This document shows, in pieces, positions 4,006 to 40,367 of a stretch of DNA of 64,000 nucleotides. The notes beneath the pieces were generated by a model. The model saw only the letters and a list, made by a program, of their open reading frames with translations. It was not told the DNA's origin and did not search any database. The stretch spans positions 37,510,001-37,574,000 of the forward strand of contig CM060731.1 of assembly GCA_030704615.1 (NCBI GenBank), read 5' to 3'. How positions within the stretch are numbered: position 1 is the first letter of the stretch; the number at the start of each line of letters is the position of its first letter. This DNA comes from Takakia lepidozioides (Eukaryota; Plantae; Bryophyta). A program made the translations under genes and the position numbers.

Positions 4006-4178
4006 GGGATATTTAAGGATTGAAGAGGGTGCTACAATGCGTTCTCTTTGTTTGGTGTGTATGGTGTGCCCAGATTGCAGAAGGCCAGCAGGTCCTGTAG
4101 TGGATCCATGATAGAGCGGCGGGGCACCAGCAGCATCGAATGCAACTGTGTTTTTCTCAAACCCTCTAGTATCGTGCA

Positions 4179-10931: not shown

Positions 10932-11859
10932 CTTATAAAGATTTGCATATAAGTGTTTTTTGTCTCGCTTTCTCATTTGTACCTTATAGTTGTATACTTT
11001 AGACTTTTTGTCTAGTGTTGCACATGCTGCTAGGTTTCTCTAATGTGTGTTTTCTCTTCTATAAGAGAGAGATTATTGTTCTCCTGTTTTTACAGTGAAA
11101 CAGTTTCAATCATACACTTTCGTCATTTGCATATCTTTGCAGTTGTGCTTTAGAAAATCTAAGAAATGGATGAGAGAATGGGGATGAATGCAAACAATAT
11201 GAGGATTAGATAATGGGATTGTGACTATAAGTAGGAACATAGAAGGGGATCCAAGAAGCTGGAAAAACCTATCTTTAAAATACAATTGAAACATTAATGT
11301 GACATGATCACTACATGTCATAAAATTTGATTAGTGTCCGTCATTGTACCACTCCAAAATCATCTTAATTACTTATGCAAATCAGCTAAGTGTGCTGCTA
11401 AACAAACACCAAAAAGAGACAAATATAGCATAGTGGCGGCCCAATCCATTAAGTGCTAGGGAGCCACCGTTTCGGCCCACCGCTATCTGAATAAAAACCA
11501 TGATGAGAGGTGGATAACTAATAGGATGGTTGGGTGTTATACCCTCTACCTCCATAAAAAACTACTCGTCACTTCATCCATCAAGATCACTTTTAGTTTT
11601 CATGCATTCACCTACTTACTAAAAACGTCTACTCTAAGTGCATGCCTCACATCATGTGCTACCACTAGTCAGACATCGTTACATGCACCTTGGGCCCTTG
11701 ATCCCCCACTTGAGTGAAAGTCTATAATTTGTTTTCATCCTGACCACCTTCCATCCTTTGTGACTATTTCCATTGAAGCTAATTCACACAACATCTAGCT
11801 AGATTTGGTCTATTATATTATTTTTCACTTCTGGATCTAGATATCACATGGTTCACAAC

Positions 11860-13616: not shown

Positions 13617-14022
13617 TAGTATACACACATACACACTAAGAAGAAGATGATTTAATATATTAGAATTAATACTTAGATTTAATTCTGCACTCGTGTGCTC
13701 GTAGTGGGAGGAGGAAGAGAGAAGGACTCTTGCCGAAGCAAGCGTAACTCCACCGCAAAGGGCTTTTGCCTAATTGGGTTTGGAAGGTGCTTGCAGTAGT
13801 GGTTGAGCTTAGAGATATAATTCCAACCAAAATCTCTATAAATAACATCATCATCATCTTCTTCTTCTTCTTCTTCTTTTATTAGAGCATACAACTCACT
13901 TTTGACTTGGACTTTTTGGTCGAAATCGGGACCAAACTAGAAGTACGACAATATCACATGTTATTGAATAAATAAATAAATCATATTAAAATAATATATA
14001 TACAGTCTATTCAATCGTTTCA

Positions 14023-17900: not shown

Positions 17901-18945
17901 AGGCAATGCAAGCTTAAGGTCGGTAACGGAGTTCACACAACCGCCAGTTTCAACGATGCATAGGCGATGGAGCCACCTATTTCTGCCCCCATGAGCGAAA
18001 ATAGTCTGGGGCTTATAAAGATTTGCATATAAGTGTTTTTTGTCTCACTTTCTCATTTTTGTTGTTGTACCTTATAGTTGTATACTTTAGACTCTTTATC
18101 TAGTATTACACATACTGCTAGGTTTCTCTAATGTATGTTTTCTCTTCTATAAGAGATAGATTATTGTTCTTATTTTTTACGGTGAAACATTCTCAATCAT
18201 ACACTTTCGTCATTTGCATATCTTTGCAGTTGTGCTTTAGAACGTCTAAGAAAGGGATGAAAGAATGGGGATGAATGCAAACAATATGAGGATTAGATAA
18301 TGGGATTGTGACTATAAGTAGGAACATAGAAGGGGATCCAAGAAGCTGGAAGAACCTATCTTTAAAATACAATTGAAACATTAATGTATATGATCACTAC
18401 ATGTCATAAAATTTAATTAGTGTCCGTCATTGTACCACTCCAAAATCATTTTAATTACTTATGCACATCAGTAAGTGTGCTGCTAAACAAACACAAAAAA
18501 GAGACAAAGATAACATAGTGGCGGCCCAATCCATTAAGTAGTAGAGAGCCACCATTTCTGCCCACCGCTATCTAAATAAAAACCATGATGAGAGGTGGAT
18601 AACAAATATGATGGTTGGGTGTTATACCCTCTACCTCCATAATACTTGTCACTCCATCCATCAAGATCACTTTTAGTTTTTATGCAATCACCTACTTACT
18701 AAAAACGTCTACTCTAAGTGCATGCCTCATATCATATGCTAACACTAGTCAGACATTGTTACATGCACCTTGGGCCCCTTGATCCCCCACTTGAGTGAAA
18801 GTCTATAATTTGTTTTCATCATCACCACCTTCCATCCTTTGTGACCATTTCCATTGAAGTTGATTCACAATTCACAACATCAAGCTAAATTTGGTCTATC
18901 ACATTATTTTTCACTTTTGAACCTAGATATCACATGGTTCACAAC

Positions 18946-20730
18946 CTACCAAGACCAATTTGATCGACAATTTTCCTTGTCATTACCATGATAATAACCA
19001 GCACCGTTGGTATCAATTTCCCAAGTAATTGATAATCCTTGGTACCATACTCCAGCGGCTTGTCATGTGTGAGTGTGATAGAACCCTATTGAATCGGTAT
19101 ATGTAGCCGTACAAGTAATCGTCGATGCGGCCATTCCCCAGTTGATATTTACGTTGTTTTGCATGGATGGATGAAGAATCTGCAATGCTCGTGATTGAAA
19201 TTGTCATGAGGAAAAATGCAGCAAAGATGTGATTTTTCGTGTACAAGAGCTACAAACTACAAGGTTTATAATATCTAGCTTACAATGTATCACACATTTG
19301 AATTTTGATTTTTATTCTTAGGAGAGGGGAAAAAGACAATGTGATCCGAAATGAATTAGAAAACATGTTTATGAGAAAATAATAATAATAATAATAATAA
19401 TAATAAACCATGTAAAGTCAATGAAGATATGGTAGTTTCTCAAAACTAGCCACCACCAAGAAAAACCTGTTAGTGCCTAGTAGTCATTTGTTTTTCTTTC
19501 AAAAATCCAAATCCTTAAACTGAAAAAACCTTCTAATTTTGTGAAAAAAATAACACAATTTTAAAATTCTGACCGCACATTAGGTGCATACCATACATAC
19601 CTCCTAAATGGATCTGCCAATTTGTAAGGCATTCAAGTAAAAATTGAGAAAAACCCCACCCTTGCAAAGTAGGCCCATTTTTGGGCCGCATACCCCTGAT
19701 GGAACCGCCAACCCTTCCTACCCCAGTGCTTAAAATAATTTGTTTTAGCAAAGGAGTGGCCAAAATACCTATCATAATCCAATAGATTCACTAAGTTCAA
19801 TAATGTGGGTCTAAGCCCCTTAAATCAATAAGTTCAATCAGTTTAATAAACGCCCTTCAGGCTATAACTTGCACCACGTGCATCTATCATATTTAAACAA
19901 TTTCGCACATCAGAAATGCTGGAAAATAAAAGAAACTAAAACAATCCGGAAATTACAAATAGGACTTCTTAATCTGAAGATTTGGGTGATGAGATGATTT
20001 CCAAATGAATTGAATCTGCTCTCAATCTATCCTTGGTAGGATCTTGCATCCAATCCAAAAAACAAAATGCATTCCGAGCACAAGATAGCATAATAACACT
20101 TGGTCATAGCAGCCTGGGTAAATATTGTGGAAGACGTTTTCTCATGTAGGAAGAGAATTTTCTCACATGCCAGGGGATGCTAAATTCTTACACCACAAAA
20201 CTAGACTTCTCCTCCTTTGATTTGGAAAATTGAAATGCTCAACGAAAAATCCTACAAATCACGCATTGGATTCTTATCCGTCAGGTGGATGGCATCAGCA
20301 GCTCAAAATTTTGGATCATTTGATTGAAATATGAGAAAACCACACCAGAAAAACAAACAACAAAGACCCAAAACAAGCCGAAATGACCACTTAAGGGTTA
20401 AAATAGAGTATGCATTATTCTGATAAAATTACAAGTCGTGAATTGGCCTAAATGCACTCATGTTCAACTTGTTAAATAATGAACAAGAAAAATTATGAGG
20501 TGATATTCAGGAATGGGATAGATAATTCTTACAAATGATGAGGTCGTACGTGCAGAATATCTGCAAGTAACACTCAATGTGTAATTCATAGTATTAGTGA
20601 TGTAGAGCGTGTAATCGACTGTTGATACTAAGGAGAGACATCCAATAGTGATGATTGGTAGAACAAAAGTGAACAATAATCTATCATTCTTATGTCCTGG
20701 TATAGGAGATAAACCTTGCATTCTCGTCAT
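18946..20730 (-). pseudogene. Second SPH-like gene copy with premature TGA (TGG>TGA at 19063-19065); exons 20730-20533, 19179-18946
   Basis: Same splice sites as copy 1. Exon 2 reads ...YHTHT*QAAGVWYQG...NWSW*. Confidence 0.7.
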
Positions 20731-21141
20731 TAGTACACACACATACACACTAAGAAGAAGATGATTTAATATATTAGAATTAATATTTAGATTCAATTCT
20801 GCACTCGTGTGCTCGTAGTGGGAGGAGGAAGAGAGAAGGACTCTTGCCGAAGTAAGCGTAACTCCACCGCAAAGGGCTTTTGCCTAATTGGGTTTGGAAG
20901 GCGTTTACAGTAGTGCATATGTTGAGCTTACAGATATAATTCCAACCAAAATCTCTATAAATAACATCATCATCATCATTTTCATCTTCTTCTTCTTTTA
21001 TTACAGCACACAACTCACTTTTGACTTGGACTTTTTGGTCGAAATCGGGACCAAACTTGAAGTACGACAATATCAAATGTTATTGAATAAATAAATAAAT
21101 CATATTAAAATAATATATATACAGTCTATTCAATCGTTTCA

Positions 21142-23443
21142 CTAGAAACAAGCGGCTCGTCGTACAATGGCTCATCTTTATGGTGACTACCTATTAGAGT
21201 ATTATGATGATGATATATATTGGTAGCAAGGAATGTAATTAGGTTATTTAAAAACAATAAATACAAGATGCAATATGCTTATGTAATGCTACATGCAGTG
21301 TTGATGATGTGCATTTGTCCAAACATGGTCTAGTTGAGATCCATAAATAGTAGTACTAATTGGAAATTGGAGTTGCATGTGAAAAGGAAAACATGAATTT
21401 TTGCAATTGATTTATTGTTACGGGTTAAAATAACGATGTTCCCGATGGTATATAAATTGATGAATCTAAAGGGACCTGAAGGGATCTAAGATCTTAATAA
21501 AAACTACAAGTTTTGAAAAGTTGAAAAATATGGATAATACTAGACTGAAAAATTTCTTTAATAAATAAATATCTAAATTAAAATAAACACTTACATCTCG
21601 ATTACATATAGATTTAGAACAATTGAAGAAAAATTGGAGATTGCTAAATATGAGTATTTTTTATAGAATAAATATATTGACTAATTATAGTAATTTTTCA
21701 AATGATATGCAATAATTTCAAGAAGATAACAACAATTCAACAACAAAATTGTATTAATTTCAAAAGATTGAAAATATCTATACAATAAAGACTTAATATA
21801 TTGAGATTAAATTATTTAAAAATAAAACAAAATTAGTGCTTAATCTACAACTCCATTGTTTTTATGAAAATTAATTTTTCATTTGTATATAAATTGATGG
21901 ATCTAAAGGGACCTGAAGGGATCTGAGATCTGAAAAAAACTAAAGATTTTGAAAAAAATGTGGGTATTATTGAACAAAATAAATCCTTTAATGATTAGAT
22001 ATCTAAAGTAAAAACATTACCTACATTCATCTTAAAATGTATGTATTATAAATTAAAAACATTAAATACTGTTAGATATGAGTACTTTATTTTATGGAAT
22101 AAATTTAATTACAGTTTTTTATAAATGATATCTAATAACTTCAAAAATATAACAACAAATGAACAACGAAATGAATTTATAATATAAAACAGATCTTCAT
22201 TTGCAATCGACATTTAAACTTAAAAAAACGACAATTAAAATATTTTGAAATGTGATAGTGAACCACTAACAATGTCAAAGTTAATTTTATGTTTAATGTT
22301 GTGATTCAATGGTAGCAACTAAAATAGATGAAACTAATTTGAATCAAATTATCTAAATTGCATCATAAGGTATAATTTCAGGGACGAGATTAAGTGCAAA
22401 TGTGCCTCTCAATTGAATTTTCGAGAGCCGACCAAGTAAATGAAAATTCAGACTTTATATTCATGAACCAAACTTTTATTATTGTGAATCGGAAGGAAGC
22501 TTACTAAAAGTACAACTTTAAAATCGCAATCTCAAATCCGCATTTTCAAATCTGTCATTTTGTAAAATCAAAAACATAGGTTTAGAACTTACAATCAGGA
22601 TGTCATCAGGACCGATGCTGTCGACAACTTTCAGCTCATACTTGCTGTCAATCTGCCCTCAGAAAAAATCACAACCATCGCGAGAGTGAGGTCAAAAGAG
22701 GTTGGTAGCGTCGCACAACCATCATATTATCTGAGAAGACAAGATAAAAACACAATGAAAACAAGATAAAAGAAATAGTAGCTAAACAACATGTGCTTGA
22801 GACCTTCTCTACTCACATAATGAGGAATGTGTCACTGACAACAAAGTGTCAACTCCCTATTATAGTGTTATACCTTCCCTTAGATAACCTTCTCTAAATG
22901 AACCTCTCCTAGGATAGTAGATACTTAAAAGGTTATTAATAAATAACTGAATATATATATTTTAAAGGTAATATTTCACGATGTGAGTATAATGTAGTGG
23001 TATGTCAACTCCCTATAACACCTACCCTAGATAACACCTACTTCCTGGGATAATAGATACTTGAACGTTATTAATAAATAACCATATATATATATTTTAA
23101 AGGGTAATGTTTCAAGAGGTGAGTATACTGTAGTGATCTTTTCCGGATTGCACCAGCTCTAAATGAACCTCTCCTCGGATAATATATACTTGAACGTTAT
23201 TAATAAATAATTGAATACATATAAAGGGCCTTCCCCAGATAACTTGCTCTAAATGAACCTCCTTGGATAACAGATACTTGAAGGTTATTAATAAATAACT
23301 GAATATATATATATATATATATATAAGTGTAATATTTCAGGATGTGCTGTAGCGGCATTCCCCAGATAACACCTGCTCTAAATGAGATAATAGATACTTG
23401 AAGGTTATTAATAAATAGCTGAATATATGTATATTTTAAAGGG
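21142..23443 (-). mobile_element. Duplicated Helitron-like remnant (internally deleted)
   Basis: CTAG terminus at 21142-21145, homologous to 14023-16393. Confidence 0.5.
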
Positions 23444-24489: not shown

Positions 24490-25068
24490 TCTTGTTGTTT
24501 TTGTAGCTAATTAACACATAACTGTCTACACCTCTTTGATAGACAAAATTATTGACAACACACGATTAGCAATGCTATAAGACCTTTACAAAATAACAAT
24601 TAACGCCTAAGGCCTAAACACTTAATTGTGTGTTCTTCATAGAGATTGCCAACACATGCAAACTTACAAAATTTGATACTAAACCTGCACAGAATGACCA
24701 ACTGAATATGCCCAATAATAGGCTATCTTGATGTAACATCTGTAAAATTTAATTAACATATGAGTGTGTTTTTGACATTATTAGCACACATGTCAACTAA
24801 CTTAAGAAAAACTCTACTACCAAACCTATAAATATTCCTAATAAAATAGATTCTTGTTGTTCTTGTATTTGATTATTTAATACAGTACGTGAGTGTGTTT
24901 TGATAGACATTGTCAACATCCCTAGAAACCTAACCCGCTGACAATGACCAGCTAAAAATACCCTATAATAAGCTAATAGATTTTTGTTGTTCCCGCAACT
25001 AATTAATTTATACACCTAAGAGTATTCTTGTGAGCATGTTCTTTATAGACATTGTCAACACACACTTA
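24490..25068. repeat. Degenerate tandem repeat that was the retrotransposon target (last unit continues at 36836-36860)
   Basis: Recurrent GTGTGTT...ATAGACATTGTCAACA.C.. units. Unit at 24903 reads ATAGACATTGTCAACATCCCTAGAAACCTAA, and the rejoined flanks read ATAGACATTGTCAACACACACTTAGAAACCTAA. Confidence 0.65.
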
Positions 25069-25420
25069 TGTCAAGTTAAATAAGCACAGTGTGAAAACAG
25101 CTAGAATAAAACTAGTTATTTGTATTTAACACTTGGATTTAGGTCAAGTGTTAAATCAGGTGTCAAGTTTAGTTTGACACCTGGTCTGTCTTATCTTCAC
25201 GAGAGCGGCAGTCGCGCGGCTCATCTCTCTCGAGTTGAGCCTGCGCGACCGAGCTCCTTCCTGCGTTTAGAAGCTGTGTGTGTTTATGATGGGAGTGTAG
25301 GTTGTTGTGGGGTGGAGTCCCCATAGCTTGGGGTGCCCTTGGCTCGACTTCTATTTCAAAGAGTGATGATTTTGGTTTCCATGTTTTGTGTCAACAGTGT
25401 GTTAAAGAGTCTTTCTATCA
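25069..25420 (+). repeat. Repeat A1 (5' partial LTR, 352 bp)
   Basis: Matches 36400-36749 except for four small indels, with no substitutions seen. Confidence 0.95.
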
Positions 25421-25432
25421 CTCGAGAGAGAT
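25421..25432 (+). promoter_or_regulatory. Self-priming primer binding site CTCGAGAGAGAT
   Basis: Immediately follows the LTR end ...TATCA. Exact reverse complement of LTR-internal ATCTCTCTCGAG (25223-25234). No TGG tRNA-type PBS. Confidence 0.8.
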
Positions 25433-26459
25433 CACCTCTTACCTGTGAGTGCAAGGTAGGAGTTGAGGGTTAGCACTTGTATGATTACCTGTGTGAGAGT
25501 AGTGCTTAGTTTAAGAAGCTTTAAAAAAATATATATATATATATATGCAGGTTTCGATCAGCGTTGGTTCTGGCATAAGGCCGCCGGGCAGGACGGAGCT
25601 ACACTGCATGGAAGCAGCCTTCGTTTTGGTCAGTGAGGAGATATCATGGTGGAGCAGCAGGATGATGCGCAAATGTAAGGAAAACTGTGTCTGTTGGTAG
25701 CTGCTGACAACCGCAACTCTGTCCCTGGACTTCTTCTCCGGAGGTGGAAGCCTGTGTGCAGCGTGCATGCAAGAGTGTGGTTGTGACAGGGGAACAAGCG
25801 CTTGCGGTTGCATTACTACTGCAAGTTGGGCACTCGGTGCGTCGCTATAACTGCAATTGTACAGGAGCACTGTGAGAGGCAGATTGTTCTGCAGCCTTGC
25901 TATACCTGGTCAGTCCAATGGTGACACATCCATACCTTGTTAAAGCAATATGGACAGTTGTCGATGAGGACGGCTCTATGAAGGACACTGCGAGCTAAGA
26001 AGGGCTCGGGTACAAAAGCACACATTGGAGCGTTTAAGCAAGTTAGGGCGGGAAAAAGAAAAACAGGCCCAAATAGCCAAGCACATGAAGTAGTGAATGT
26101 TGATGGAAGAAACCTGTGACACTCCCATTTTGCTGGAGGAGATCGTTGATTAATTGATGTCCCCGGAGCTTCAGGTGCAGGCCCTACAATCGCTGGCTAA
26201 CAAGACTGATTTACAAGCAAAACCTGCAGGGCAATCTGCCGAGAGCCTCATCTGCTTCTCGGAGGGGTTTCCGTAAATGCCCAGCTTGTGCCCTGCCTGG
26301 GCAATAGGGGGAATCCCGCCTTCAGAACTTGGCTTTGGTGTACCAGAGAACTCTGCAACCTTTGGCGTTCCTTCTTTCCCAGGCCCTTGTGCCGACCTTC
26401 TCCAATGTGTCCTTGTCTCTCTCACCATCTGCTGCCTCGGCAAGCTCGCAGTGGAGACC

Positions 26460-26797
26460 TGCTTGCGGCTGTTTTCTGGATTTAGAGTGGGTTTGAAGTA
26501 TAGAAAAGAACTTGGAGATTACAGTGGGCAGGTCGCAGCCGGTGCGTCCTTGACGTGGAAGGCCACAACGGAGAGGAATGTGGTAGCCAGGGCTGCTGGA
26601 GATGCCCCAGAGTCAGAGGTCGAGATTGTTCCTGAGGTCACCATCCCAGCCATAGTTTCCCTCAAGTCAAAAGCATAATTGTTAAAGAAGAAGGCTAAAC
26701 GATTGGAGCTTCGAAGGAAGAGGCTGGTGCGCAAGCGCAAGTTAAGGAAGAAAGGCCAATGGCCTCCTTCCAAAATGGCCAAATCAAGAATGTATAG
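26460..26797 (+). pseudogene. PSRP5: Captured, intronless plastid-specific ribosomal protein PSRP5 (cL37) fragment inside the retrotransposon
   Basis: VVARAAGDAPESE...*LLKKKAKRLELRRKRLVRKRKLRKKGQWPPSKMAK[frameshift]KNV* matches the PSRP5 C-terminus. In-frame TAA at 26676-26678. 5' limit approximate. Confidence 0.85.
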
Positions 26798-27413
26798 GGC
26801 CTCAGGAGGGTTCAAGGATAAGAAGAAAAGAAAGTTATCACGTCTGCGGGAGGTCCAACAGGTCCAAGGAGCACACGTACAACACCACAGTAGAACCACA
26901 GACATCAAAAAAAAAAAAGGGCAGCTCAATTCTCAAACTTCACACACAACAGGTGTCGCAATCAACGGCCAAGCTCTTGTATGCTCTGCTCTGCTCCTGT
27001 TGTGCTGAATGTTGGTGAAGTGAAGCTGTGGTTTCGATGTGGCAGATGTGTTGTGCAAGTCCAGCAACCATCCACGAATCGTTCGATTGCAGGCCGCCTG
27101 TCCATAAGCCATGAGGGTGTTGCGCAGTGCATCTCTTGATCTGCTCTTGAAATCGCCCCTACCTGGACGAACTACCTGGATGTGTTGGAACTCGTAGGTG
27201 ACTTGGGAGCAGTTATAATGACAAAAGCGTTTTGGTGTTAAAAAAAAAAAAAACAAAGCCTTTTTGATCTAATTTAAATGTTAAAGAGCCTGGTTGGTCA
27301 TATCTTTGTCAAATGGACTCTGTTTGACTCAGTTTTTGGGGGGAATAGCTGCAGAAAGGGGAAATCTACCTACCTAGACCTGGTTTCTGTTTTTGGGACT
27401 CTGCTAAGATCTA

Positions 27414-28263
27414 TGGAATTTTTAGAGTGGGAGTGTGCCATAAAATATCCACAATCTTGTTTCTAGAACCTGTGCTGGCCTATATGAGAGACAAACCTGT
27501 GGATGTACTCCCTGTATGGCTGGGGGAAATGAGGACGTAATTGAAGGGCAGGTCTCTCTCTTAGCCTGTGCACACAAGGGGACAGGATCTATGTTTCCCA
27601 AGGAACTCAGACTGATTTGAGTGGAGAACAGTTGGACGAGTTGATTGCATACTGGGAGTCAGGCATTAGCAGTAGACAACAGACTGCTGCAGTTGGCATT
27701 GAGGGCCTCAATATCGCCTTGGACAGTCAGAACTCTGTTGGAGCCAGCAGTTCTGCAGCTGTAGGTGAAATACCAAAGTGGGTGGAAGCTAGGCTTGGAA
27801 CACAGCCAAAGACAGCCCCGGGGACCAAGTGTTCAGCCACAAGGCCGTGGTGTACTGGAGCAGAGGAGCAGGAGCTACACAAGTTTGTGCAATCAGACAT
27901 GGTTGCAGCCGGATACGCTCTGCACAGGGCAACCACGAGCGGGGGTTCATCAGCAATGACATGTTTGTTGTGCGTGAAGGAGATGCAGTCATTCGCAATG
28001 AGGACACCCGCAACCGTCTCAAAGCTTTCGAGTTGAGAGACTATCAGACCCTACCTTTGTTTTCTTTAGTGTTCAGTGAGCGGGAGATAGGGGAGTATTG
28101 CTTTGTCTCTACCTGGCAAAAAGAGGAGGAGGGTTGGTTAGAGCGAGCTACTGTAGCTTGGGACAAGGTTAGTGGCAGGTTTCTGGACATAGATATACCT
28201 CCTACACCTTACCATCATGCAGAGCGAGGCACTTTGAGAGAAGTCTGGCAGTTGATAGCATAG
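27414..28263 (+). pseudogene. Frameshifted accessory ORF of unknown function upstream of gag
   Basis: Overlapping open frames 27617-28036 and 27829-28263 with protein-like composition (EQLDELIAYWE, FISNDMFVVREGD, WLERATVAWDKVSGRFLDID). Confidence 0.4.
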
Positions 28264-28995
28264 ATCAGGATTAGATCTTGCTTGGTCGGGCTTCTATTCT
28301 TCCCCTCCATCTCTGTACTATTTTCATTACCTTATACTTGTAGTTGCCAAAGCCTCTCTTGGTGGAGGCCAGTCAGTCCGGGGTTTTGGGCTGGGATATT
28401 CTGCAGGATCAGCGTTGCTGCTGGATTTTGGTGTGGGGGTGTTGATGTTTTGATTCTTGTGTTTGGATCCCCCCCAACACCTGCATGCTTGACTGTGCGC
28501 CATGTTGGTTTTGTGTGGGCGCTTGCTTTCATAGGGATTAGGCCGGATTTGATCACCGGTCAATCCTAGAGTATGCTGTTGGTGGTGAGGCTGGAGTGAT
28601 GACCAGCAAGACCACCAGTGTTTCTTCTATGGTGAGGCTGGGTGATGACCAGCCAACCATAGGAGTTCTTGCGGTGGATGCAGGTGCAGGTGCCCTGAGC
28701 CATTGGGATATGACCCTTAGACTGCAACAGGTGCCCACCCGTGTCACTATTAGATTAGTACTAGAGCCTTATAGTGTCCCTGGAGGAGGTGCACATTGTG
28801 AGTGTCATTACGGAGTTACCCAGGGTTTTGAGGGGAGTACGGCTACAGGCAGTAACAGTGAGAGTGGGTTCACAAGACGAGGTATTCGGTTTAGACCACC
28901 TTCACCGCCACCCTCAATTACTGTAGAGTCAGACACAGGCTCGGAGGCTTCATCAACAGGTGGTGCACTTTCATTCGCCATTGTTGTGGGACGAC

Positions 28996-30300
28996 ATGGA
29001 GGAGATGTATGGAGCTAACCAAGGGGCCTCGTAGGTACTCTGGAGCTGTGGGCACAATCGAGTTGGCTTGACTTATCCAGGAGTTCGACAGCTGGTGTGA
29101 TTTGCAGCAGATGCGCACAATCCACATCTATTCACCCCATTCATGGCGTGGAAGGGACTGTTCCAGCATTTGGAAGGCCCTCCTATGGACGATTACCACG
29201 AGCAGGCAGAGGGAGGACATGAAGCAGAGATTGAGGAGTGGAGGATGTATTGGTCAATGACTACATCTCCATTACTCGAGGCATGACGCGACCAGTAGCT
29301 GCATCAGTACCAATAGCTCCCACTGCCAGCACTAGTAGTGGAGCAGGGTAGTGCTGGGTACTTCTGCAGGGGATACCAGTTCAGAAGGTGCTACTACTAC
29401 TCCTGCCACAGCTACAACACATGTGCCTAGATTCAAACCGGGTGGTGGAGTTCTTCCAGGAGTTGCGGAGGAACTACCAAGGTGTACGGACAAGAGAAGC
29501 TGCGAAGTTGCAAGACTTCCAGCGAAACCCAGTGAGAGCCTGCGAGAGGAGTACACTCGTATGAGAGGCGCTGATAAGTGTGACCCAAGGGGTTACTGAA
29601 GCTCAGGCAATCCAGTTTTGGTATGAATTCTGGAAAGGAGCTCAAGAGAAGGGTGCGAGATGCAAACCTGTTACAAGCAGCCCAACCACATTAGCAGATG
29701 TGTTTCTGCTGGCTGAGCGGATTGAGCTCAACATGGTGGAGGAAGCGAGTTGTTAACAATTGGATTTGGTAAAGGACATGCCTGTACGGGGCACAGTGTG
29801 TCAAGCCCACAAGCACAAGGGACTGCCCAACAGCTGCCCACAAGGGCAGGGGGGTGCATGGAGTTGAGAGGCCCGTGGCATCTTTTGCAGGCCAACAGCA
29901 ACCAGGGGTGATGTTGGACATGTGGAGGACCCCATGTCAAGAGAGATTGCCCAGAGAGTGGCAGAAGGCCGGCACAAGCAAAGCCTGACAGTTGCAGTGT
30001 GGGCATTGTGGCAAGTATGGGCATGGAGATGCCAGTGTTATGACTTGCATCCTGAGTTGCGCCCAGGCCAGTTCCAAGGGAAACAATGGTGGCCGGGGGC
30101 GAGGTGTAACCAGCCCAAAGAGGACGGGTGGTCGGGCACGAGGGCAGGCCAAGGGCAACCTCCACATGGCCAAGGACGCGGAGGTCAGGGTGTGACCAAG
30201 GCATGGCCAATCGGCTTCAGCAGTAGAGCAGAGGCTCGCTGCCATGGCTATAGCTCAGGCGGTACCGGCTCCCAGGCGGGGAGGCCCCATCCTGCCTCCT
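28996..30300 (+). pseudogene. gag: gag (frameshifted) with CCHC zinc knuckle
   Basis: LIQEFDSWCDLQQ, EAQAIQFWY, and CGHCGKYGHGDASC (CX2CX4HX4C) near 29998-30040 followed by a Gly/Arg-rich tail. Confidence 0.7.
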
Positions 30301-30942
30301 GAGGGAGGAGATATGGGAGGAATGGGAATTCATGTGCGGAGCAGCACTACATTAGAGCAGGGGTGGAGTCGCTGCAGCCGTGACTCGAGGAGCAACACGA
30401 GTTCCTGAGCCACGAGGTGCAGAGGTGGAGTGGATCCACAACGTGGGGAGGCAAGCCGTCAGGCAAGGCTTTGCCTCAGTCATTCACCTGGCGGAGACAG
30501 TGTCAACGCCATCCATGGCACCTAGTTCTCGCCCGACTGTTACCGAGGCGGAGGTTACTATGCCATTGGGAAGAGCTACCCGTGCGCACTGACACCTACT
30601 ACCAAGGCTAGTGCAGCCGGTGTGGTTATTGGGAGCAGCCACCTCGTGTGTCAAGCCCCACTGTTCTCGGCGACCATGATTGCGACCGGGAGTGAGACCA
30701 GCTGCAGTGTTCAGACTAGCAGCAACACTCTGCGAGAGTGGAGAGGTCACTTCATCTTCTGCGGAGTTAGTAGTAAAAGGTGTAGTGACAGAGGGATCCT
30801 CGATTTGAGGGTCAAGACTGCCACGGCAGCGCCCTGGCAAGCTGCAGCTGCCAGATTGACGGAGCTGCCAGCTAGGCCAGCCTTTGAGCGCGCCATGTGA
30901 CACTGGAGTTGTCTTGTTAGACAACCAGGGAGGCATTTTCAC

Positions 30943-31300
30943 TTGAGTGGACCGGCAGGCAAGCAGTACCGGCCACTGCGGGTCTTGTTGGACTCAGGAG
31001 CTCAGCCACTGATGTGGGCAGAGCTGCTATGCAGGTTTGGGCCTCATGGAGGCGGATATGGAGCCTTGTCCTTTCCAGATACAGACATCTCTGGGAGGAT
31101 CAGAGCAGGCTGCCGGCATGACCCGGCATCAGTTGGCTATTAGACTGCAGCCGGATCATCCTGTAGATGGCTCAGTGATGCGAGCCAAGGCCATTGTGAC
31201 AGACGCGGTCTCTTACGATGTGTCCTCGTTGGTGGGTAGTGTTTAACCCCATGGGCTCACCCTGGATTCTGGGAGGAGTCAGCATCTACAGGCCTGGATG
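30943..31300 (+). pseudogene. Retropepsin aspartic protease domain
   Basis: RVLLDSGAQPLM active-site motif, followed by ...VTDAVSYDV.LG-like C-terminal motif. Confidence 0.8.
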
Positions 31301-31699
31301 GCAGTCAGGGGATGGTCGCCGTGCAAGCTCCCTGTGGACATTCCTGGGGGGTATTGCAGCTGCTCAGCGGGGCAAGATGCAACACTAGCCGCCTTCACAG
31401 CTGCAGAGAGTCAGCTGGCCTGGAGAGTTGCTGGAAGGCAATGCCATGCAGAGGATGTGCCACATCCAGCAGAGCAGGATGACATGCATGGAACGGCGGA
31501 GTTGCCTGCCATGGTTGCTCACACTCCGTTGTGGGGTACGAGCAAGGATTTGCAGCACGCTGCTGATGGAGGGTGTGCAACAAGCTTGGGTAGAAGCTTT
31601 TGTACCGTCAGGAGAGGAGGAGAGTGCGGTGATTGCACCAGGGCCACCTCAGTTGTCGCCATTGGACACCACACCTCTTGTGTGGCAGCGACCGGATGA

Positions 31700-32665
31700 A
31701 GGCATTGCCTTCTGGACTTATTTGGCGGGATCAGCACTGGATTGGCTGCAGTGCTGCAGGCAGGTGTACGAGTTCGACGTTACCTGTATGTGGAGAGGGA
31801 TGAGACTGCACGACGCGTCTCACTGCGCCATGTTGCTCAGATGGTGCAGCAGCACCTGAGTTGTTGCCGTGTCTGCAGTTCGTGGATATCAGCAAGCCTT
31901 GCCAGCAGACATTGCGTTGCTGGGGGCGCAGGATTTGGAGCGGGTTGGCTCCATTGATCTGGTAGTGGCAGGTTGGCCCTGCCAAGGGCATTCATCAGCC
32001 GGGCATGGCAATGGATTGCGAGACTCGAGGACGGGTCTGTTTTGGGAGATGGTGCGGATTTTGCGCCACTTGCAGCTTCATCAAGCTGTATCTCCGGCAT
32101 ACATCTTGGAGAATGTGCCACTGATGGGTGATTCTCGGGCCAGGGTGATGGCCAGTGTGCATCAAGTCCGGTCGTGGCTTGGGTCAGCAGTATTGCTGGA
32201 TGCAGCTGCAGTGGGGTCACGGGCTCATCGTCCACGACTATGGTGGACTAACTTGATGCCACCCGCACTGCTCAAGCGTGCATTTGATGGGGTGCAGCGG
32301 CCAGCACACCTCACCGTGGATGGCATTTTGGACACAGGAAGGCAGTCTCAACGTGTGAGACACGATGACCGTTCGCCTTTGGCAGTGGTCAACAGGTGGG
32401 TCAACCACGAGCAGCATTACCTACACTGCTCAGCTTCCCAGGATCCCATGCTTTTCGGGATGGTGGACCTGGCCTCCTGTGGGATGCTCAGTTGCAACAG
32501 TTAGTGGAGCCTAATGCCGACGAGCGAGAGCGGGCTATGGGGTTTCCACTGGGACCACGGCGGTGCCTTCTCTTTCTGAGGCATCACGTCGTCAGGTGTT
32601 GGGGCAAGCAATGGATCTCAATTGCTTGACCTGGATTGTCAGCTTGGCTATGGCTGAGCAACGTA
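31700..32665 (+). pseudogene. C5-cytosine DNA methyltransferase domain (DNMT3-like) within pol
   Basis: Motif I LDLFGGISTG, motif IV DLVVAGWPCQGHS, motif VI YILENV, motif VIII AHRPRLWWTN, motif IX ERERAMGFP, motif X RRQVLGQAMD, spread over several frames. Confidence 0.92.
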
Positions 32666-33099
32666 GAGTGCGGAGTGCACTTCCCTTGATGGTCTCTCTG
32701 CCTACCGAGACGGTACAGGCAGCGAGTGGGGGCGAGCCGGTGAGGACCACGAGGTGTAGACATCCATGGCACATGTGGGAGGTGCTCGAGGTTCAGAGGG
32801 AGTTGGCAGCGAAGGCAGCTGTGATGGATGAGGTTGGGGATTCTTCTCGGGATGAGGAGGTTCTCAATGATGAGATGATGGGGCAGGATGAGGCCTTGTC
32901 ATTGACTGAGCAGGAAGGGGGTACTGCTCAAGAGGTTGCAGCATAGCAACCACCGGGACGCGTCCTCTACCTCTAAGCCCACTGGACTTAAGGTTGCAGT
33001 TACGGAGGACAATTGGGAGCCTGATATGGACCCATTGTCACCGGAGGAGAGAGACGACGTATACGGCGGTTCCTGAGGGCTTACAGGAATTGCTTTGCC

Positions 33100-34440
33100 T
33101 TCAGTTTGAAGGACTTGGGAGCACTGAAGGGTCAAGAGATCCGTATTGAGTTGGCCACTGACACGCCAATCTTTCGGAGACCCTATAGATACAGTGACAT
33201 GGAGAGGTCTTTGATTCAGATGAGGACTCAAGATCTCTGGGAGGCAGGTTTGGTGGAGCTCTCTGGTGGAGAGTATGCTTCAGCCACAGTGATGCCAGCT
33301 AAGAAGGATGTCTATGGCAATTGGACGGAGAGACGTATGTGCGGTGATTACCGGCCTGTAAATCGTCAGACCAAGTCCGATAGGTATGCCATGCCAACAC
33401 CAGAGGAGATCTTTGATGCCATTGGGCATTCCAAGTCTTTAGCACGTTGGATTTACGATCCGGATATCACCAGTTGCCGATCAAGGAGGCGGATAAGCAA
33501 AAGACGGCATTCTGGGGGATCAATGAGCACGGGAAGGATTGCCTATACCAGTGGCGGTTCTTACCATTTGGGCTTAAAAACGCTCCCGCTGAGTTTCAAA
33601 GAGTCATGGACAGGATTCTAGCAGGGGTGGAGTTTGCTCGGTGCTACATAGATGACATCATCATCTTAGTGCTACGGTGGAGGAGCATGAGAGACACCTT
33701 CAGGGGGTATTTGAGCGCTTGAGGACGCACGGATTGAAGTTACATCCGGGCAAGTGCAAGTTTTTCCACAACCAGATTGAGTATCTGGGTCACATGATAT
33801 ATCCTGGAGGATTGGGGGTACAGCAGACTAAGGTAGAGTCCATTGCACAGGTTCCACGCCCCACGGATGTGAGCCGAGTTCGAGCTTTCATGGGGTTAGC
33901 AAACTATTACAGACGGTTTGTTAAGGGATTTAGTGCCATTGCAAAGGCTCTAACCAAGCTGACCAAGGTGGACCAGGAGTGGCAGTGGGAAGATGAGCAA
34001 GAACAAGCTTTTCAAGAGCTCAAGGCGAGGTTGACCTCGGCGCCCATCTTGAGACGACCTATCAGGGGGCGTCCTTTTCAGCTGCATACAGATTGGAGCA
34101 TGCTGGGGCTTGGAGCGGTGCTCACACAGGTGGATGATGAGGGAAGAGAGTTCGTAGTGGCTTATGCTAGCCGCTCGAACAATGCTGCAGAGTCTAAGTA
34201 TAGCTCATATGAGGGAGAATGCTTAGCTGCAGTGTGGGCCGTGGCACACTTCAGGTGCTATCTATACGGCAATCTCTTCACCCTTGTCACGGATCACCAA
34301 CCACTCAAGTGGTTGATGGAGTCAGACAAGCTTACGGGGAAGCTTGCACGGTGGGCACTCATCCTTCAGAGTATGACTTTCAGGTGGTGCATCGACCGGG
34401 TTTGGTCAATCGAAATGCAGATGGGTTGAGTCGCAATCCA
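33100..34440 (+). pseudogene. pol: Ty3/gypsy reverse transcriptase and RNase H
   Basis: RMCGDYRPVN, DLRSGYHQ, PFGLKNAPAEFQR, YIDDII, YLGH, LHTDWS, VAYASR, ECLAAVWAV, TDHQPL. Confidence 0.95.
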
Positions 34441-34779
34441 TGCACGAGCCAGCAGGATGACACTGGAGCTCGGTGGCATGGTGAGACGGACGAGGAGATG
34501 GTGCCCGGATGGCATGCATCTGCATTTCTGTGTATTTGGCAGCGGAAGGCCAGGTTGGACCTACAACAGGGATGACTGTAGATCAAGTGTCTGAGGACCC
34601 TGAGGCCAGCAATGAGCAGGGTGGCGCCAAAGATATACATGAGGATTCAGTTGTGTTGGAACCTCCGCAGTGGAGACACGGCAGCCACTATGACTGCCAA
34701 GGAGAGGGATCGGATCCTACAACGAGCCAAGAGGTTCAGTGGGAGGGGACACACCTGCTCCGAGTGTGGGAGGATGGTC

Positions 34780-35860
34780 GAGTGAGGATTGTGCCTCACC
34801 CAACACAGCGGGCACGGTTAGTGCGGCATGCCCATGAGGAGTTGGGGCATTTTGGGGTGCGACGCACTCATAGTCTACTGCAGGGGCAGTATTGGTGGCG
34901 TGGTATGCACACAGAGGTGCAACACTTTGTGGCTAGGTGCATGGTGTGTGACATTCAACGCCCCTACTCCACAATTGCACCCTCTTCCGATCATGGGATT
35001 GGGCTACAGGTGGAGTCTTGACTTCGCAGGGCCGTTGCCACTGACCATGCGCCACAACAAGTACGTGTTGGTGATGGTGGAGCACTTCTCCAAGTGGATT
35101 TGAATTGGTTCCATTGCCTGATAAGGCTAGTGAGGGAGCTGCGTATGCATTCCTGGATTGTGTGCTTAGCCGATTCGGTGCTCCAGCTGAGGTACTCACG
35201 GACCAAGGGAGAGAGTTCTTGGGGGAGTTTCAGGCTTTGTGTGACAAGCCTTGATAGACCACCGCACCACTTCTCGGGATCATCCTGAAGCCGATGGCTT
35301 GGCAGAGAGAGTTGTTCAGACAGTAAAGAGGGGTTTGCGCAAGTATGGCTTGCAGAAGGGACACCTAGGAGATTGGGACCTTCAGTTACCCTGGTTAGCC
35401 ATGGGCTACAGGTTCAGCAAGCAAGCATCACTTGCCTCCTTCTCACCATACTTTCTTCTCTTTGGCCGAGAGCCGGATTTGCCTACATCCATTCGCAGAG
35501 AAGCTGCTACAGTTCTTAACCTTGACGATCCGGACGTGTGGGCACGTGCATGTGAGCAGCGTGCAGAGTTGTTCAAGAGAGTCATGCCATGGCTTTCGAG
35601 AACCTTGCCATTGCACAACACCGTGATACGTTGAGGTATGCTACCATACGTGGTGGGGGCTATCGTCCTGGGGTTCGGAGATTCAACCCTGGTGACTATG
35701 TCTATCTGCAGCAGACTGCTCCTACGACCCTGGATGTGACTGCAGGACGTGTTATTTTGAGGGTTCGAGAGGTCTTGCCCTCAGGCGTCTTGGTCTTGGA
35801 GGGTCGGGATGGCATCACTTGGAAGGACCATGTGCGTAATTGTGCGCCATGTCACCTTCC
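34780..35860 (+). pseudogene. DDE integrase (H2C2 zinc finger, rve core, GPY/F-like region)
   Basis: HEELGHFG...CMVC, WSLDFAGPLP, LTDQGREF, HPEADGLAERVVQTVK, SPYFLLFGREP, FNPGDYVYL. Confidence 0.93.
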
Positions 35861-35914
35861 GAATGTCGATGGCAGGATTGACCCAAACCTGGCAGTGGTA
35901 TCTGCAGGTTTGAG

Positions 35915-36059
35915 GTGCATGTTGTGTGGGTCTGCTAAAGGGGCAGCCACCATGCTGGTATGTGATCGGTGCTCTAGAGGTTGGCATATGGGATGCTTGA
36001 CTCCACCTCTTGAGATGGTTCCGGATGGGGATTGGTTATGTCCACATTGCATTGGATAG
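35915..36059 (+). other. PHD finger at the C-terminus of integrase
   Basis: CMLC...MLVCDRCSRGWHMGCLTPPLEMVPDGDWLCPHC = C4HC3 PHD, in frame with the integrase C-terminus. Confidence 0.93.
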
Positions 36060-36302
36060 TGGGAGTGGATACAACCATGGAGGCTAACAAGAAACGCAAG
36101 GCCAGCTACTAGGAGACCTTGAACACACGAGATCTTGGCTCAAGTTCACAGATTGCAAGACGGCGACTAACGATGGGGCTACTCTTGTACCCGGCCTCTT
36201 GGTTGATAGAGTTTGAGCACATAAAGACAGTGATAGAGGACTTAGTACGGCTGTGGCTATTACATCTTGTAGCTATCTGGTAGAGGGACCTATCCACCAG
36301 CT

Positions 36303-36313
36303 AGGGGGGCGAT
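36303..36313 (+). promoter_or_regulatory. Polypurine tract AGGGGGGCGAT
   Basis: Directly precedes TG at 36314, the start of the complete LTR. Confidence 0.75.
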
Positions 36314-36749
36314 TGTGCAGACTACTTTATTGTGCATATATGTGTGGTGTGGTTTGGACAGCGATGTAGTTGTGTAGCGATATGTATGCGCACGACAGCT
36401 GTCAAGTTAAATAAGCACAGTGTGAAAACAGCTAGAATAAAACTAGTTATTTGTATTTAACACTTGGATTTAGGTCAAGTGTTAAATCAGGTGTTTCAAG
36501 TTTAGTTTGACACCTGGTCTGTCTTATCTTCACGAGAGCGGCAGTCGCGCGCTCATCTCTCTCGAGTTGAGCCTGCGCGACCGAGCTCCTTCCTGCGTTT
36601 AGAAGCTGTGTGTGTTTATGATGGGAGTGTAGGTTGTTGTGGGGTGGAGTCCCCATAGCTTGGGGTGCCCTTGGCTCGACTTCTATTTCAAAGAGTGATG
36701 ATTTGGTTTCCATGTTTTGTGTCAAGTGTGTTAAAGAGTCTTTCTATCA
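36314..36749 (+). repeat. Complete LTR (B1 36314-36397 + GC + A2 36400-36749), TG...CA
   Basis: Begins after the PPT and ends in the same ...TATCA that precedes the PBS in A1. Contains the palindrome GACAGCTGTC at 36394-36403. Confidence 0.9.
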
Positions 36750-36750
36750 T

Positions 36751-36835
36751 TGTGCTAGACTACTTTATTGTGCATATATGTGTGGTGTGGTTTGGACAGC
36801 GATGTAGTTGTGTAGCGATATGTATGCGCACGACA
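36751..36835 (+). repeat. Repeat B2 (second copy of the first ~84 bp of the LTR), forming the element's right end
   Basis: Identical to 36314-36397 apart from a 1-nt indel. Followed by TSD CTTA. Confidence 0.95.
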
Positions 36836-38558
36836 CTTAGAAACCTAAAGCATTGTCACTATAGGAAGAAAAAAAAAGGGGGGGGCGACGCCACGCTAAT
36901 TCGTCTGCGACGCTCAAGGGTTGCCTGACCAGTTTTGCATTTGATTTTGAATGTTTTTTCTGGTTTTTTTTTTTTTTTTTGGTTGTTGGGATAATTCACT
37001 CATTGCTATATACATAGTGATTTAGCAGCCTTAAACATTGCGTTTAAAGAATCACCATGAACAACCATAAATTTTGAGGGTGAGGCCGCGCGAAATGAAA
37101 TAAATGAATCCCTGAAATACACTCTGACTCTCACTACTTGGGGTACTAGGCCGTCAACCATCACCTGCTCCCAAAGAGCTCTAATCCAATCCGATGTCAT
37201 CCCCCCCTCATCAACACTAATGTCTTGATCTAGTGCACTCCCCTCTATGACATTCATGAGCCCATGTCGACCATGTTCTTGGTGCACTGGTATTCCACCA
37301 AAGATGACCTCCTCGCAAACTTGCGGACCTACACATGGCATACATCATAATCAGTTCCTCACGATGACGGAGCTAGAAAAAAGACATAACAAAATACATA
37401 GGGAAACACGACTTACAAATCGAGTGACAAAAGACTTAGCTCCGCCAGGGCCCCATTTCTTTGTAGAGTCCGCCTTCTCAAGACGTGCAGTTGTTGCGGA
37501 GCGTGCTTGCTCAAAGCTTTGCCCCTTTGATGCATCATCCTCTCTAGCTATGAGAGCATCCCATGATTTCTATGCACCCCCTCAGTGAATTCTCACACAT
37601 ATGTCGCATTGAATCCACTGCATTGCACATGCAACAAATAGAAGGTGAAATGATTCGGTAACTTGCAAACCCACTAGAAGGAAAACGGAATAGGTAACCA
37701 CTGGCCCATTTGACCACTCATGTCTTTTACCACTCTATAAACCACTCACAGTAATGGTAACCACTGACAAGTGGTTAATCCAGATGAAATGTCACGGTGG
37801 CACTAGATGGAATGGTTCGCAGTGGTTTCAATCACTTATTACTCCATGTGTAATATTGTAATTATTATTTAATAGATTTTAGTTGATAAATGTAATATCC
37901 CACGTGGACTAGAGCAGTCATAAATCGTGAGTGATTAAAAACACATCAGTAATTCACACCACTGTTGTGGTTATGCATAAGTATGCTAGTGGTTTGTATT
38001 GTACACCTGTAACAGATATTGGAAAACATATCAAGTGTTGAATTCATTACATGAGGATGCTATTGAATAGTGGATTTAAGGTAGTCAAACCTATAATGGT
38101 TACCATTCAAAATGTGACCCCTATAATTATTTGTTAAATGGCTCAATTGTGAATTCAAAAACGTCCATGCACACCTGCCGATCCGAATTACATGGCAGTT
38201 CATTATTAGTCTTTGGAAACTACATGCACGGTAAAGATCAGAGGTATTAAAATGGCTGATCTGTTTGACATTTATTGCTGGTTCAAAACAAGGAGGGTGA
38301 CGGTCATATTTGAGAATGCATTAAATCGTTTTGGCAAATGCATACTGTTAGGAAACTGTAGCAAGTGGGCCAGGATTCAAACGAGCCGTCGTTTTATAAT
38401 TGCAACAAAGTGGTTAATTAGTGTGATTAATCATGGACCGATTTGAATCTACAAACAAACTTTTAAACACATAATGGCGGGCCATTTCGAGTATGTATGT
38501 GGTGAGATTTGTGCGGCTAAGTTTTGTAGTGTGGAGTACGCTTTCAGATCAGTAGGAA

Positions 38559-40367
38559 ATGGGATCGTCATTCAGGCATGCAGATGCATTTCGTTTGCTT
38601 CCTGATACGGAATTAGCAGGAGATTATGAGGGAAATCACGTTGAACTTAGTGAGAGTGAGAATGAATCGAGCAGACATGGGCCCACAAATTCACGCTTGA
38701 ATGAAGACGAAAGCTATGACAGTGGGGGAGACGTGCACCCCTATTACGATTGGGCTCAGGATCCGGAGGATCATTCCCAAGTGCACTTCCAATGCGGTCA
38801 AGGAGACGGAGTGTTTGATCAGATCAACTAGCAAAGTCAATCGGTCCCACGAGCTCCAATTAGCAGCGATGAAGGGAATGGTTCAGGAGGTGCATTGCTG
38901 GCAAGAAACGAGGAACCTATTAATATCAATGATCCTCCACCGCACCGGAAGCAACGGAGTCAAGTAGGACCGCAAAGGAAAAATGGGAATTGGACAGATT
39001 TCTCACTCCGAGCTGCGATGAGTGCACATGATCATGGAATGCCGATTCGGACTGCGGCGCAACAGTTTGGGATACCTGTGACGTCTTTGCGTAATCATCT
39101 ATATGGAATCACCACTAGCAGAAAACGTGGAGTCAAAGGGACACTCACCGAGACGGAAGAAACAAAACTAGTAAATTATATTGAAAAAATGCAGTTGATT
39201 GGACATCCTCTTACTTTGACTCAATTAAGATTGAATTGCAGAGATCTGCCAGGAATGTGTAACGCCATTCAAAAACGGCATCCCTGGCTGGGGTTGGCTC
39301 CGTTGGTTCAAACGTAGAAATCCTCAATTGGCATTACGTGTATCACAAGGATTAGAAACTGGCCGGACAAAGGGCTTGTGTCCATCTAATGTGGCAACGT
39401 TTTACAAGAATCTTGCTAAAATTTATGAGCTGAACAAATACACACCGGATAAAATCTGGAATTGTGACGAGTCAGGGGCCCAGGCAGGCCGGAATGGAGG
39501 AGCGTTGGTTCTTGCAAAGAAAGGGTCCCCCACTGTACATTCCATAATGCCAGATGAAAGGGAATGGTTGTCGGTGCTATCACCCATCCTGATCAAGAAG
39601 ATATAAGGACTGCCACTGTTGACTTGCAAGTTGAGGAAATTTTGGGCAATAACATATCCGAGACACATATTGAGGCAGGTACGCACCACTACGTCGTGGA
39701 GGAAGAGGACGAAAATGAGTTGGTCCCGCGAGGTACCGAGCGATTATCCTCGAGCCAATCTAGCCACACTAGATCCTCACCAGAGCTGGAAATAGTTGCA
39801 GGAGCACCCATTCAACGACACTCTATCACTCAATTTTTGAGTCTACCACAAATACCAGTAGCACCTCGACGACGATTGAATGGAGATGGCTCGGAGCCAA
39901 TAATTGACTACAACAAATCCATTCTCATGACCTCAGATGAGTACTTGCTAGCTTTGGAGCAAAAGATTTCCAGGAAAGAAGAAGCCCTGAAAGTGCGGGA
40001 GCAGTGTAAAAAAGAGCGCGAACTGAATAAGCAAAAGCGTACTCTCGATAAGGTGGAAAAAGAGGAGCTGAAGCGCAAAAAGGTGGAGGAGCGGGAGGCC
40101 AGAAAGCAGTTCGATAATCTCTGGTCCGCCAAAAATTATTCATCGATTGGAGAGCGTCTCCATGCTGCCATCCGATCTGATGCTTCCATTCCTACCACAA
40201 CTTACCGAGGAGTTTTCTGTGGATCAGCTCCACCTATTTGTCGCTGTAACATGAAAGTGGCAATTCAAAAGCAGAAAGCGAAGAAGGCGGGTTTGGATAC
40301 ATCAGGGTTCGTCTTTATCGAACCTCCATGGGTTTACAGAAGCGTAAGCAGAGCCGGTGATAGTTGA
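38559..40367 (+). mobile_element. pogo/Fot-like (Tc1-mariner superfamily) transposase remnant, internally deleted
   Basis: HTH-psq (IRTAAQQFGIPVTSLRNHL), CENP-B-type HTH (EETKLVNYI...GHPLT...PGWGWLRWFKRR), first catalytic Asp (IWNCDESG), REWLSVL, then a jump to the C-terminal coiled-coil region. TIRs not identified. Confidence 0.8.

Follow-up and report, generated by a model that had tools for sequence, protein, structure and literature searches.

A DNMT3-like cytosine methyltransferase domain conserved in a bryophyte Ty3/gypsy retrotransposon family and followed by a predicted readthrough stop codon

Why a retrotransposon should carry a cytosine methyltransferase, and whether such a domain is a lasting part of the element or a chance passenger in one copy of it, is the question raised by a locus of Takakia lepidozioides that lies within a 64,000-nucleotide stretch of genomic DNA (the window; contig CM060731.1 of GCA_030704615.1, positions 37,510,001 to 37,574,000 of the forward strand). 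Coordinates below are those of the window, and features are on its plus strand unless noted. A DNMT3-like C5 cytosine methyltransferase domain (DNMT) spanning motifs I-X occupies 31706..32664 in four frame pieces, all without stop codons; the frame is broken near 31860, 32395 and 32543, and once more just upstream of motif I. The original prediction held that the motifs of such an enzyme follow one another in canonical order, and all six can indeed be placed at 31715-32616: motif I (DLFGG, 31715-31729), motif IV (GWPCQ, 31971-31985), motif VI (ILENV, 32103-32117), motif VIII (RAHRPRLWWTN, 32220-32252), motif IX (ERERAMG, 32522-32542) and motif X (GQAMD, from 32602). The largest frame piece matches Pfam PF00145 with E=1.1e-13. 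The domain lies downstream of the protease motif LLDSG (30985-30999) and upstream of the reverse transcriptase (RT, from about 33030).

When a profile built from relatives of the domain was used to rank PDB structures, DNMT3A (E=1.5e-17) came ahead of DRM (5e-10), DNMT2 (5e-7) and HhaI (1.5e-5). An AlphaFold2 model was made of a natural relative, P0045 (pLDDT 74, pTM 0.74); in a Foldseek search with this model all matches listed are DNMT3A/B (E 3.6e-18), and comparison with isolated DNMT3A/B catalytic domains gives TM scores of 0.77-0.81 by target length. The motif order of the element domain is unpermuted, unlike that of DRM. Among solved methyltransferases the domain is nearest to DNMT3 in both sequence and fold, so that calling it DNMT3-like was justified as a statement of similarity, not of phylogeny; the FastTree tree discussed below is made of element-borne domains only. 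The likeness to host DNMT3 (animal DNMT3A/B, and the moss and liverwort DNMT3 as described in PMC6453930) concerns the sequence and fold of the catalytic domain; the element enzyme differs in being without PWWP, ADD and introns and in being embedded in a Gag polyprotein, and its identity to human DNMT3A/B is only 19-22%.

The element that carries the domain spans 25069-36835, has TG...CA ends and is flanked, in this one copy, by a 4-bp target duplication (CTTA, 25065..25068 on the left, with the same four bases at 36836..36839 on the right). From the 5' end it consists of repeat A1 (25069..25420, TG...CA), a 3.6-kb region upstream of gag (25421..29020), a frameshifted gag region (29021..30900, located by tblastn with P0008, P0029 and P0047), a frameshifted aspartic protease (30910..31320, including LLDSG; the proteases of relatives match Asp_protease_2 / gag-asp_proteas weakly), the DNMT, a frameshifted RT (33031..33800; Pfam RVT_1, E=5.3e-16 and 2e-7), RNase H (33986..34372; Pfam RT_RNaseH, E=9.4e-36), a frameshifted integrase with H2C2 zinc finger, core and C-terminal part (34737..35870; Integrase_H2C2, E=9.5e-16, and tblastn with P0051) and, at the end of pol, a PHD finger (35916..36050; Pfam PHD, E=2.3e-11) whose best solved matches are CHD4, PHF12 and KDM5. 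The order protease, RT, RNase H, integrase is that of Ty3/gypsy, and TG...CA ends with a short target duplication are those of integrase-type insertion. A tyrosine-recombinase element of the DIRS/Ngaro type was considered and rejected, the integrase H2C2 finger and core being present and the 17 ORFs scanned giving no recombinase match. The pre-gag region is unusually long and contains Lys/Arg-rich and Cys-containing ORF fragments; it may harbour an extra gene, and the five of its ORFs that were tested gave no Pfam match.

The repeats are not arranged as two full terminal LTRs. Downstream of pol come a polypurine tract (36303..36309; AGGGGGG, present also in loci L024, L058 and L062), repeat B1 (36314..36397, TG...CA), the dinucleotide GC, repeat A2 (36400..36749) and, at the 3' end, repeat B2 (36751..36835), giving the split layout A1, coding region, B1, GC, A2, B2. 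A1 is 98.3% identical to A2, differing by gaps only and by no substitutions, and B1 is 98.9% identical to B2. The B1/A2 junction (CA-GC-TG) forms a 10-bp palindrome, GACAGCTGTC (36394..36403, either strand), which is identical in L004 and L062 and is the predicted integrase cut site. Among the 22 loci with enough downstream DNA both split repeats were found in three and the A repeat only in two more. These ends are best read as one RT-defined B+A LTR that was joined end to end (A2-T-B2) and opened at the internal palindrome. A 13-nt stretch in A1 (25223..25235), paired in the fold, is complementary to sequence just past A1 and would be the partner of a predicted self-priming-type primer-binding site at 25420..25432. 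The test for such a complement was positive in two of six elements, the window element (13 nt) and L062 (17 nt of different sequence, with segments at 1842 and 2017); the BLAST-derived A1 ends of the other four are short or decayed. That complementary segments of differing sequence occur in two lineages suggests self-primed reverse transcription, presumably of the kind used by Tf1. The 5' region folds no more stably than shuffled sequences (z -1.27, not significant), and the window contains no tRNA genes.

Elsewhere in the window lie a host gene for a DEAH-box helicase that also has HA2 and dsRNA-binding domains (4024-8772), a tandem duplication of about 7.1 kb (11087-15830 and 18174-22712, the copies 87-97% identical and the ends carrying short AT-rich repeats), a remnant with a weak Psq-type HTH match that is probably a DNA transposon (38832-40367) and, on the minus strand, a LINE-like RT with endonuclease (52249-56362), bordered by two copies of another repeat in inverted orientation (52064-53255 and 56913-57790).

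The window copy is young, and it is heavily frameshifted, which would be expected if a copy now dead had, in a single event, taken up the methyltransferase gene of a host or bacterium, or if the assembly were chimeric here. The frameshifts are, however, likely to be errors of long-read assembly, since in all 11 single-base differences tested the base repeats its neighbour, where 44% would be expected (p about 1e-4); these 11 were drawn from the differences listed (12 of 42 in one table), and four of them fall in runs of two or more. None of the 13 alignments with P0051, which cover DNMT and pol, is interrupted by a stop, three of 16 alignments with P0008 contain one stop each, in gag and protease, and over 32572-33700 a 2,173-nt contig of a different study shows four gaps but no substitutions.

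Against a single capture or a chimera stands the occurrence of the same arrangement in related loci. Searches with the window DNMT piece returned 27 longer relatives at 37-75% identity, the named ones being from Marchantia polymorpha, Calypogeia fissa and Sphagnum troendelagicum and most lying at 64-75%; intact natural proteins exist in three named genera. Eighty metagenome loci were fetched as relatives, most of which represent one Sphagnum-type lineage, some in duplicate, because the seed protein clusters with Sphagnum proteins; two weak and unrelated IMG/VR loci were excluded from the counts. The order protease, DNMT, RT is found in 47 of the 47 loci that match all three. DNA runs of the host organism yielded 27,706 and 29,995 contigs on 30600-33700, and in runs X1, X3 and X6, which come from two studies, cover is even, the depth over the DNMT being about that over the RT (summed contig depth, a rough measure). 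Estimates of dN/dS are 0.07-0.14 for the DNMT (window pieces against six loci) and 0.06-0.09 for RT/RNase H (five pairs, the sixth being saturated), values that are rough because dS is near saturation. Two dead Sphagnum-type copies, L004 and L012, give 0.99 when compared with each other, which reflects decay after insertion and is no test of the family; among the window-versus-majority differences listed in the DNMT, at least seven are substitutions (four synonymous, three not), too few for a dN/dS within the genome.

Of 159 domain-complete proteins, near-duplicates counted, 158 retain the catalytic Cys, all 159 the Glu of motif VI (ENV), and 155 and 158 the Arg residues of motif VIII. PC occurs in 72 and ENV in 73 of the 80 loci, figures biased by the use of both motifs as search patterns. 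By these sequence measures the DNMT domain is a conserved trait of the family, under purifying selection and with its catalytic residues kept. The outcomes that had been named as fatal to the original prediction (a one-off insertion, loss of catalytic residues, neutral dN/dS) were each looked for, and none was found; the chance that the domain is a solitary capture or a chimera is negligible. A separate feature of motif IV is that Glu replaces the Pro before the catalytic Cys in 74 of the 159 domains.

A profile search widened the family to 496 clusters (50% identity) at E<=1e-30. Among the best 150 representatives the DNMT lies inside Pol in 82 (RT, RNase H, DNMT, integrase), nine proteins end after protease-DNMT, seven continue into RT, and 52 could be assigned to none of these three forms. 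In the FastTree tree (146 domains, 318 columns, midpoint root, near-identical cluster members left out by a hand list of 17 ids) the protease-side and Pol-internal forms separate with support 0.979, and the window DNMT falls in a clade (0.998) with sequences from Marchantia, Calypogeia and Sphagnum. The Pol-internal sister group (P0024-P0026 and P0056 among the 82) has its DNMT between RNase H and integrase. Related proteins of DNMT-bearing retroelements are also present in the zygnematophyte alga Closterium (P0097, P0224, P0212 and others); they fall in the protease-side group, and their presence in this alga agrees with descent of the family from streptophyte algae.

How the domain is expressed relative to the RT is a separate matter. 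It had been proposed to lie inside the pol polyprotein, between protease and RT. The order stands, but a TAG at 32944 closes a Gag-PR-DNMT reading frame before the RT is reached, and the single open PR-DNMT-RT frame looked for does not exist in this lineage, a stop between DNMT and RT being kept across related loci. In the window this stop (32944-32946) ends the frame 114 codons past motif X, after a poorly conserved C-terminal tail (32665..32943), and is followed directly by CAA CCA (TAG CAA CCA, 32944..32952). This is the leaky CAR-YYA context, given as the consensus for readthrough in TMV, where an in-frame UAG is likewise followed by CAA-CCA (PMC2194720), and the site is predicted to allow readthrough into pol. 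Full-length natural proteins (P0008 of Marchantia, P0029, P0047, P0022 and P0027) have the same composition, Gag-CCHC-protease-DNMT, and end 20-136 residues past motif X.

A stop followed by CAR-CY is present in 55 of the 57 loci with both anchors (TAG in 37, TAA in 18) and is in frame with the RT in 51, although these loci are mostly of one Sphagnum-type lineage with duplicates; the exceptions are L079, with TAG-TAG-CCA, and L074, without a stop. The hexamer is CAA-CCC in 51 of the 55, which agrees with five of the six CAR-YYA positions, and CAA-CCA in two of the 55 as well as in the window; the perfect context is found in the window, in contigs of four runs and in L056. The nine nucleotides of the stop motif are 89-100% identical (8-9 of 9 bases) among three lineages, represented by the window, L056 and L012, with flanks, compared ungapped, that are only 29-44% identical. 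Across four runs, each of a different study and one of them from a second organism represented by a single contig, 32942-32952 shows no substitution at or above 3%, with 32940 and 32941 variable, and the contigs of these runs keep the stop in frame with the RT. Between gag and DNMT there is no recurrent stop, the most widely shared position having one in at most 6 of 17 loci. Because the stop and its context are conserved and no recurrent stop precedes them, the first ORF is taken to be Gag-PR-DNMT, with Pol as its likely readthrough extension. On this comparative evidence production of Pol by readthrough at TAG-CAA-CCA is a prediction in which we place considerable confidence.

The same role for the DNMT could be combined with another route to Pol, through a spliced mRNA, through reinitiation or from an internal promoter. 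Four Marchantia gene models (P0004, P0005, P0021 and P0075) do link DNMT to RT across the gap, but they look like predicted introns placed so as to skip the stop, and a contig of run X5, whose status as RNA is a guess, spans the DNMT-RT junction unspliced. Reinitiation would be permitted in the Sphagnum-type lineage by an ATG two codons past the stop; this ATG is missing in the window and in L056, where TAG-CAA-CC and the reading frame are nonetheless kept. The gag-pol stop of C. albicans Tca2 is a precedent of another kind, in that it need not act by simple readthrough (PMC2194720). Nothing can be concluded from the gap in the cover of run X5 at 31952-32471, and none of the RNA runs on record contains the window stretch. 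A route other than readthrough is rather unlikely. Readthrough is also not the only arrangement in the wider family, the DNMT being in one ORF with RT in other lineages, for example in P0051.

With Pol made by readthrough, a course of events can be proposed. RNA would start in A1, likely prime itself through the 13-nt complement and be copied into DNA with B+A repeats, with plus-strand synthesis beginning at the polypurine tract upstream of B1; the junction of A2 with B2, together with the palindrome at B1/A2, suggests that the product is an end-joined circle which integrase then opens. Most of the product would be Gag-PR-DNMT, so that in each particle the methyltransferase would be plentiful and RT and integrase, which would come from readthrough together with RNase H and the PHD finger, scarce. 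Within the particle the protease would presumably free the DNMT, whose simplest use would be to methylate the new DNA and so let the incoming copy arrive with marks like those of host heterochromatin, an idea offered by de Mendoza et al. (PMC5890265), and the PHD finger borne by the integrase would steer insertion according to histone state. The parts of this proposal differ in strength. That the domain is catalytically active on DNA is quite probable; if it is active, the element's own cDNA or end-joined circle is the probable substrate, though this is held with less assurance; and the whole, in which the DNMT closes the Gag-PR-DNMT frame before a leaky stop, is packaged at the level of Gag and likely methylates the element's new DNA before integration, is the reading that we favour by a modest preference. 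A Gag-level dose is not required throughout the family, since 82 of 150 DNMTs lie inside Pol and seven are continuous with RT, with nine ending after the DNMT. No footprint of self-methylation is seen beyond background, because the CpG depletion of the element is no stronger than that of its neighbours (0.50, against 0.41 in the neighbouring LINE and 0.40 in the host gene), and CpG/CHG depletion does not discriminate.

This missing CpG footprint is also what would be expected if the domain acted on RNA, or if its function within Gag were structural or one of binding nucleic acid and any methylation of DNA were a side effect. The position of the domain at the end of the Gag ORF, the Glu in place of Pro before the catalytic Cys in 74 of 159 members and the inactivity of KnitGypsy-Dnmt3 in yeast (PMC5890265) point the same way. 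Yet the catalytic and SAM-binding residues are all kept, and the similarity to DNMT3 (E 1.5e-17) far exceeds that to DNMT2, which acts on tRNA (5e-7), so that an RNA-directed or purely structural role appears doubtful.

An active enzyme might instead work in the nucleus or at integration, on the target site, on resident copies or on the second, uncut B/A palindrome, and so limit re-cutting or copy number. The inserted element does keep one palindrome intact (GACAGCTGTC, whose CAG/CTG sites are symmetric), a PHD reader sits on the integrase, free enzyme is to be expected from Gag-level expression, and de Mendoza et al. list a host benefit or slowing down of the element among the options (PMC5890265). 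The DNMT itself, however, is without a targeting domain and would end on a cleavage product separate from that of the PHD finger, and retention of the domain at two different polyprotein positions fits a role in cis within the particle. Action in the nucleus or at integration is possible but improbable, and methylation of the element's own new DNA remains the preferred reading. A broader scheme, advanced as speculation and with little confidence, would have a large and ancient Gypsy radiation of the green lineage with DNMT3 as an obligatory replication enzyme, moved in the streptophyte branch from Pol to the Gag side of a leaky stop; at capsid level the DNMT would methylate a self-primed, end-joined circular cDNA and so control which of two internal palindromes integrase cuts, the PHD finger picking the chromatin target. 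Under this scheme the epigenome of seed-free land plants might also receive de novo methylation encoded by elements whose copies are young and abundant.

Comparison with retrotransposon-borne DNMTs of algae (de Mendoza et al. 2018) had been suggested at the outset and is apt, the Gypsy plus Dnmt3 layout being known from Klebsormidium nitens. KnitGypsy-Dnmt3 is described as having Gypsy domains, an intronless and unpermuted Dnmt3-like domain with key residues kept and under purifying selection, and DIRS-type split repeats A1...B1-A2-B2, all as here (PMC5890265). It differs in that its DNMT is described in one ORF with RT and RNase H, where the window element has a leaky-type stop, and in its host, K. 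nitens being an alga and the named close relatives of the window element being from liverworts and Sphagnum. The window element probably works like KnitGypsy-Dnmt3 and belongs to the same radiation, a likeness drawn from the description and not from K. nitens sequence; no named Klebsormidium protein is among the matches of the relative searches. In yeast KnitGypsy-Dnmt3 gave no methylation, a result its authors call inconclusive, and SymbioDIRS-Dnmt3 of Symbiodinium methylates CG de novo (PMC5890265). The latter also has a DNMT3-type domain within a retrotransposon polyprotein, but with a DIRS RT and tyrosine recombinase in place of the DDE-type integrase and 4-bp target duplication of the window element, and is regarded by the same authors as an independent capture. 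EpiLTRs/DAM-LTRs (bioRxiv 10.64898/2026.05.21.726589) similarly combine, in LTR elements, a DNA methyltransferase with a chromatin reader, but the enzymes there are an adenine methyltransferase and a DNMT4-sister DNMT, a chromodomain is present, and the hosts are algae and protists; the accessible text of that preprint refers once to 'streptophytes (Gypsy-DNMT3)' and there does not mention Marchantia, bryophytes or land plants. The in-frame stops of SIRE1 and MuLV lie directly after gag or before env (PMC2194720), unlike the window stop, a predicted readthrough site, which follows Gag-PR-DNMT.

According to a 2019 review (PMC6338049), land plants such as tracheophytes lack transposons that encode a methylase, and in their accessible parts papers of 2025 and 2026 name just 'streptophytes' for such elements. 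No account of such elements in bryophytes, or of their stop, was found in the literature within reach, in which the name KnitGypsy occurs in a single paper and which did not include most subscription papers, Repbase reports, figures and the bioRxiv supplements, so that an earlier description is possible. The family of the window element is a land-plant variant of the known DNMT-bearing retrotransposons, and the stop between DNMT and RT sets it apart from KnitGypsy-Dnmt3 as described; its layout predicts enzyme in Gag-level amounts, a stoichiometry unlike that of the Pol-fused cases. The role of retrotransposon DNMTs was left open by de Mendoza et al. (PMC5890265). Marchantia polymorpha has an intact Gag-PR-DNMT ORF (Mp4g09160, P0008). 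It is also a genetic model with methylation mutants, and because it offers both, the purpose of a retrotransposon DNMT is directly testable there. Gag-PR-DNMT ORFs of this kind will lead to overcounting of DNMT3 in annotations of bryophyte genomes.
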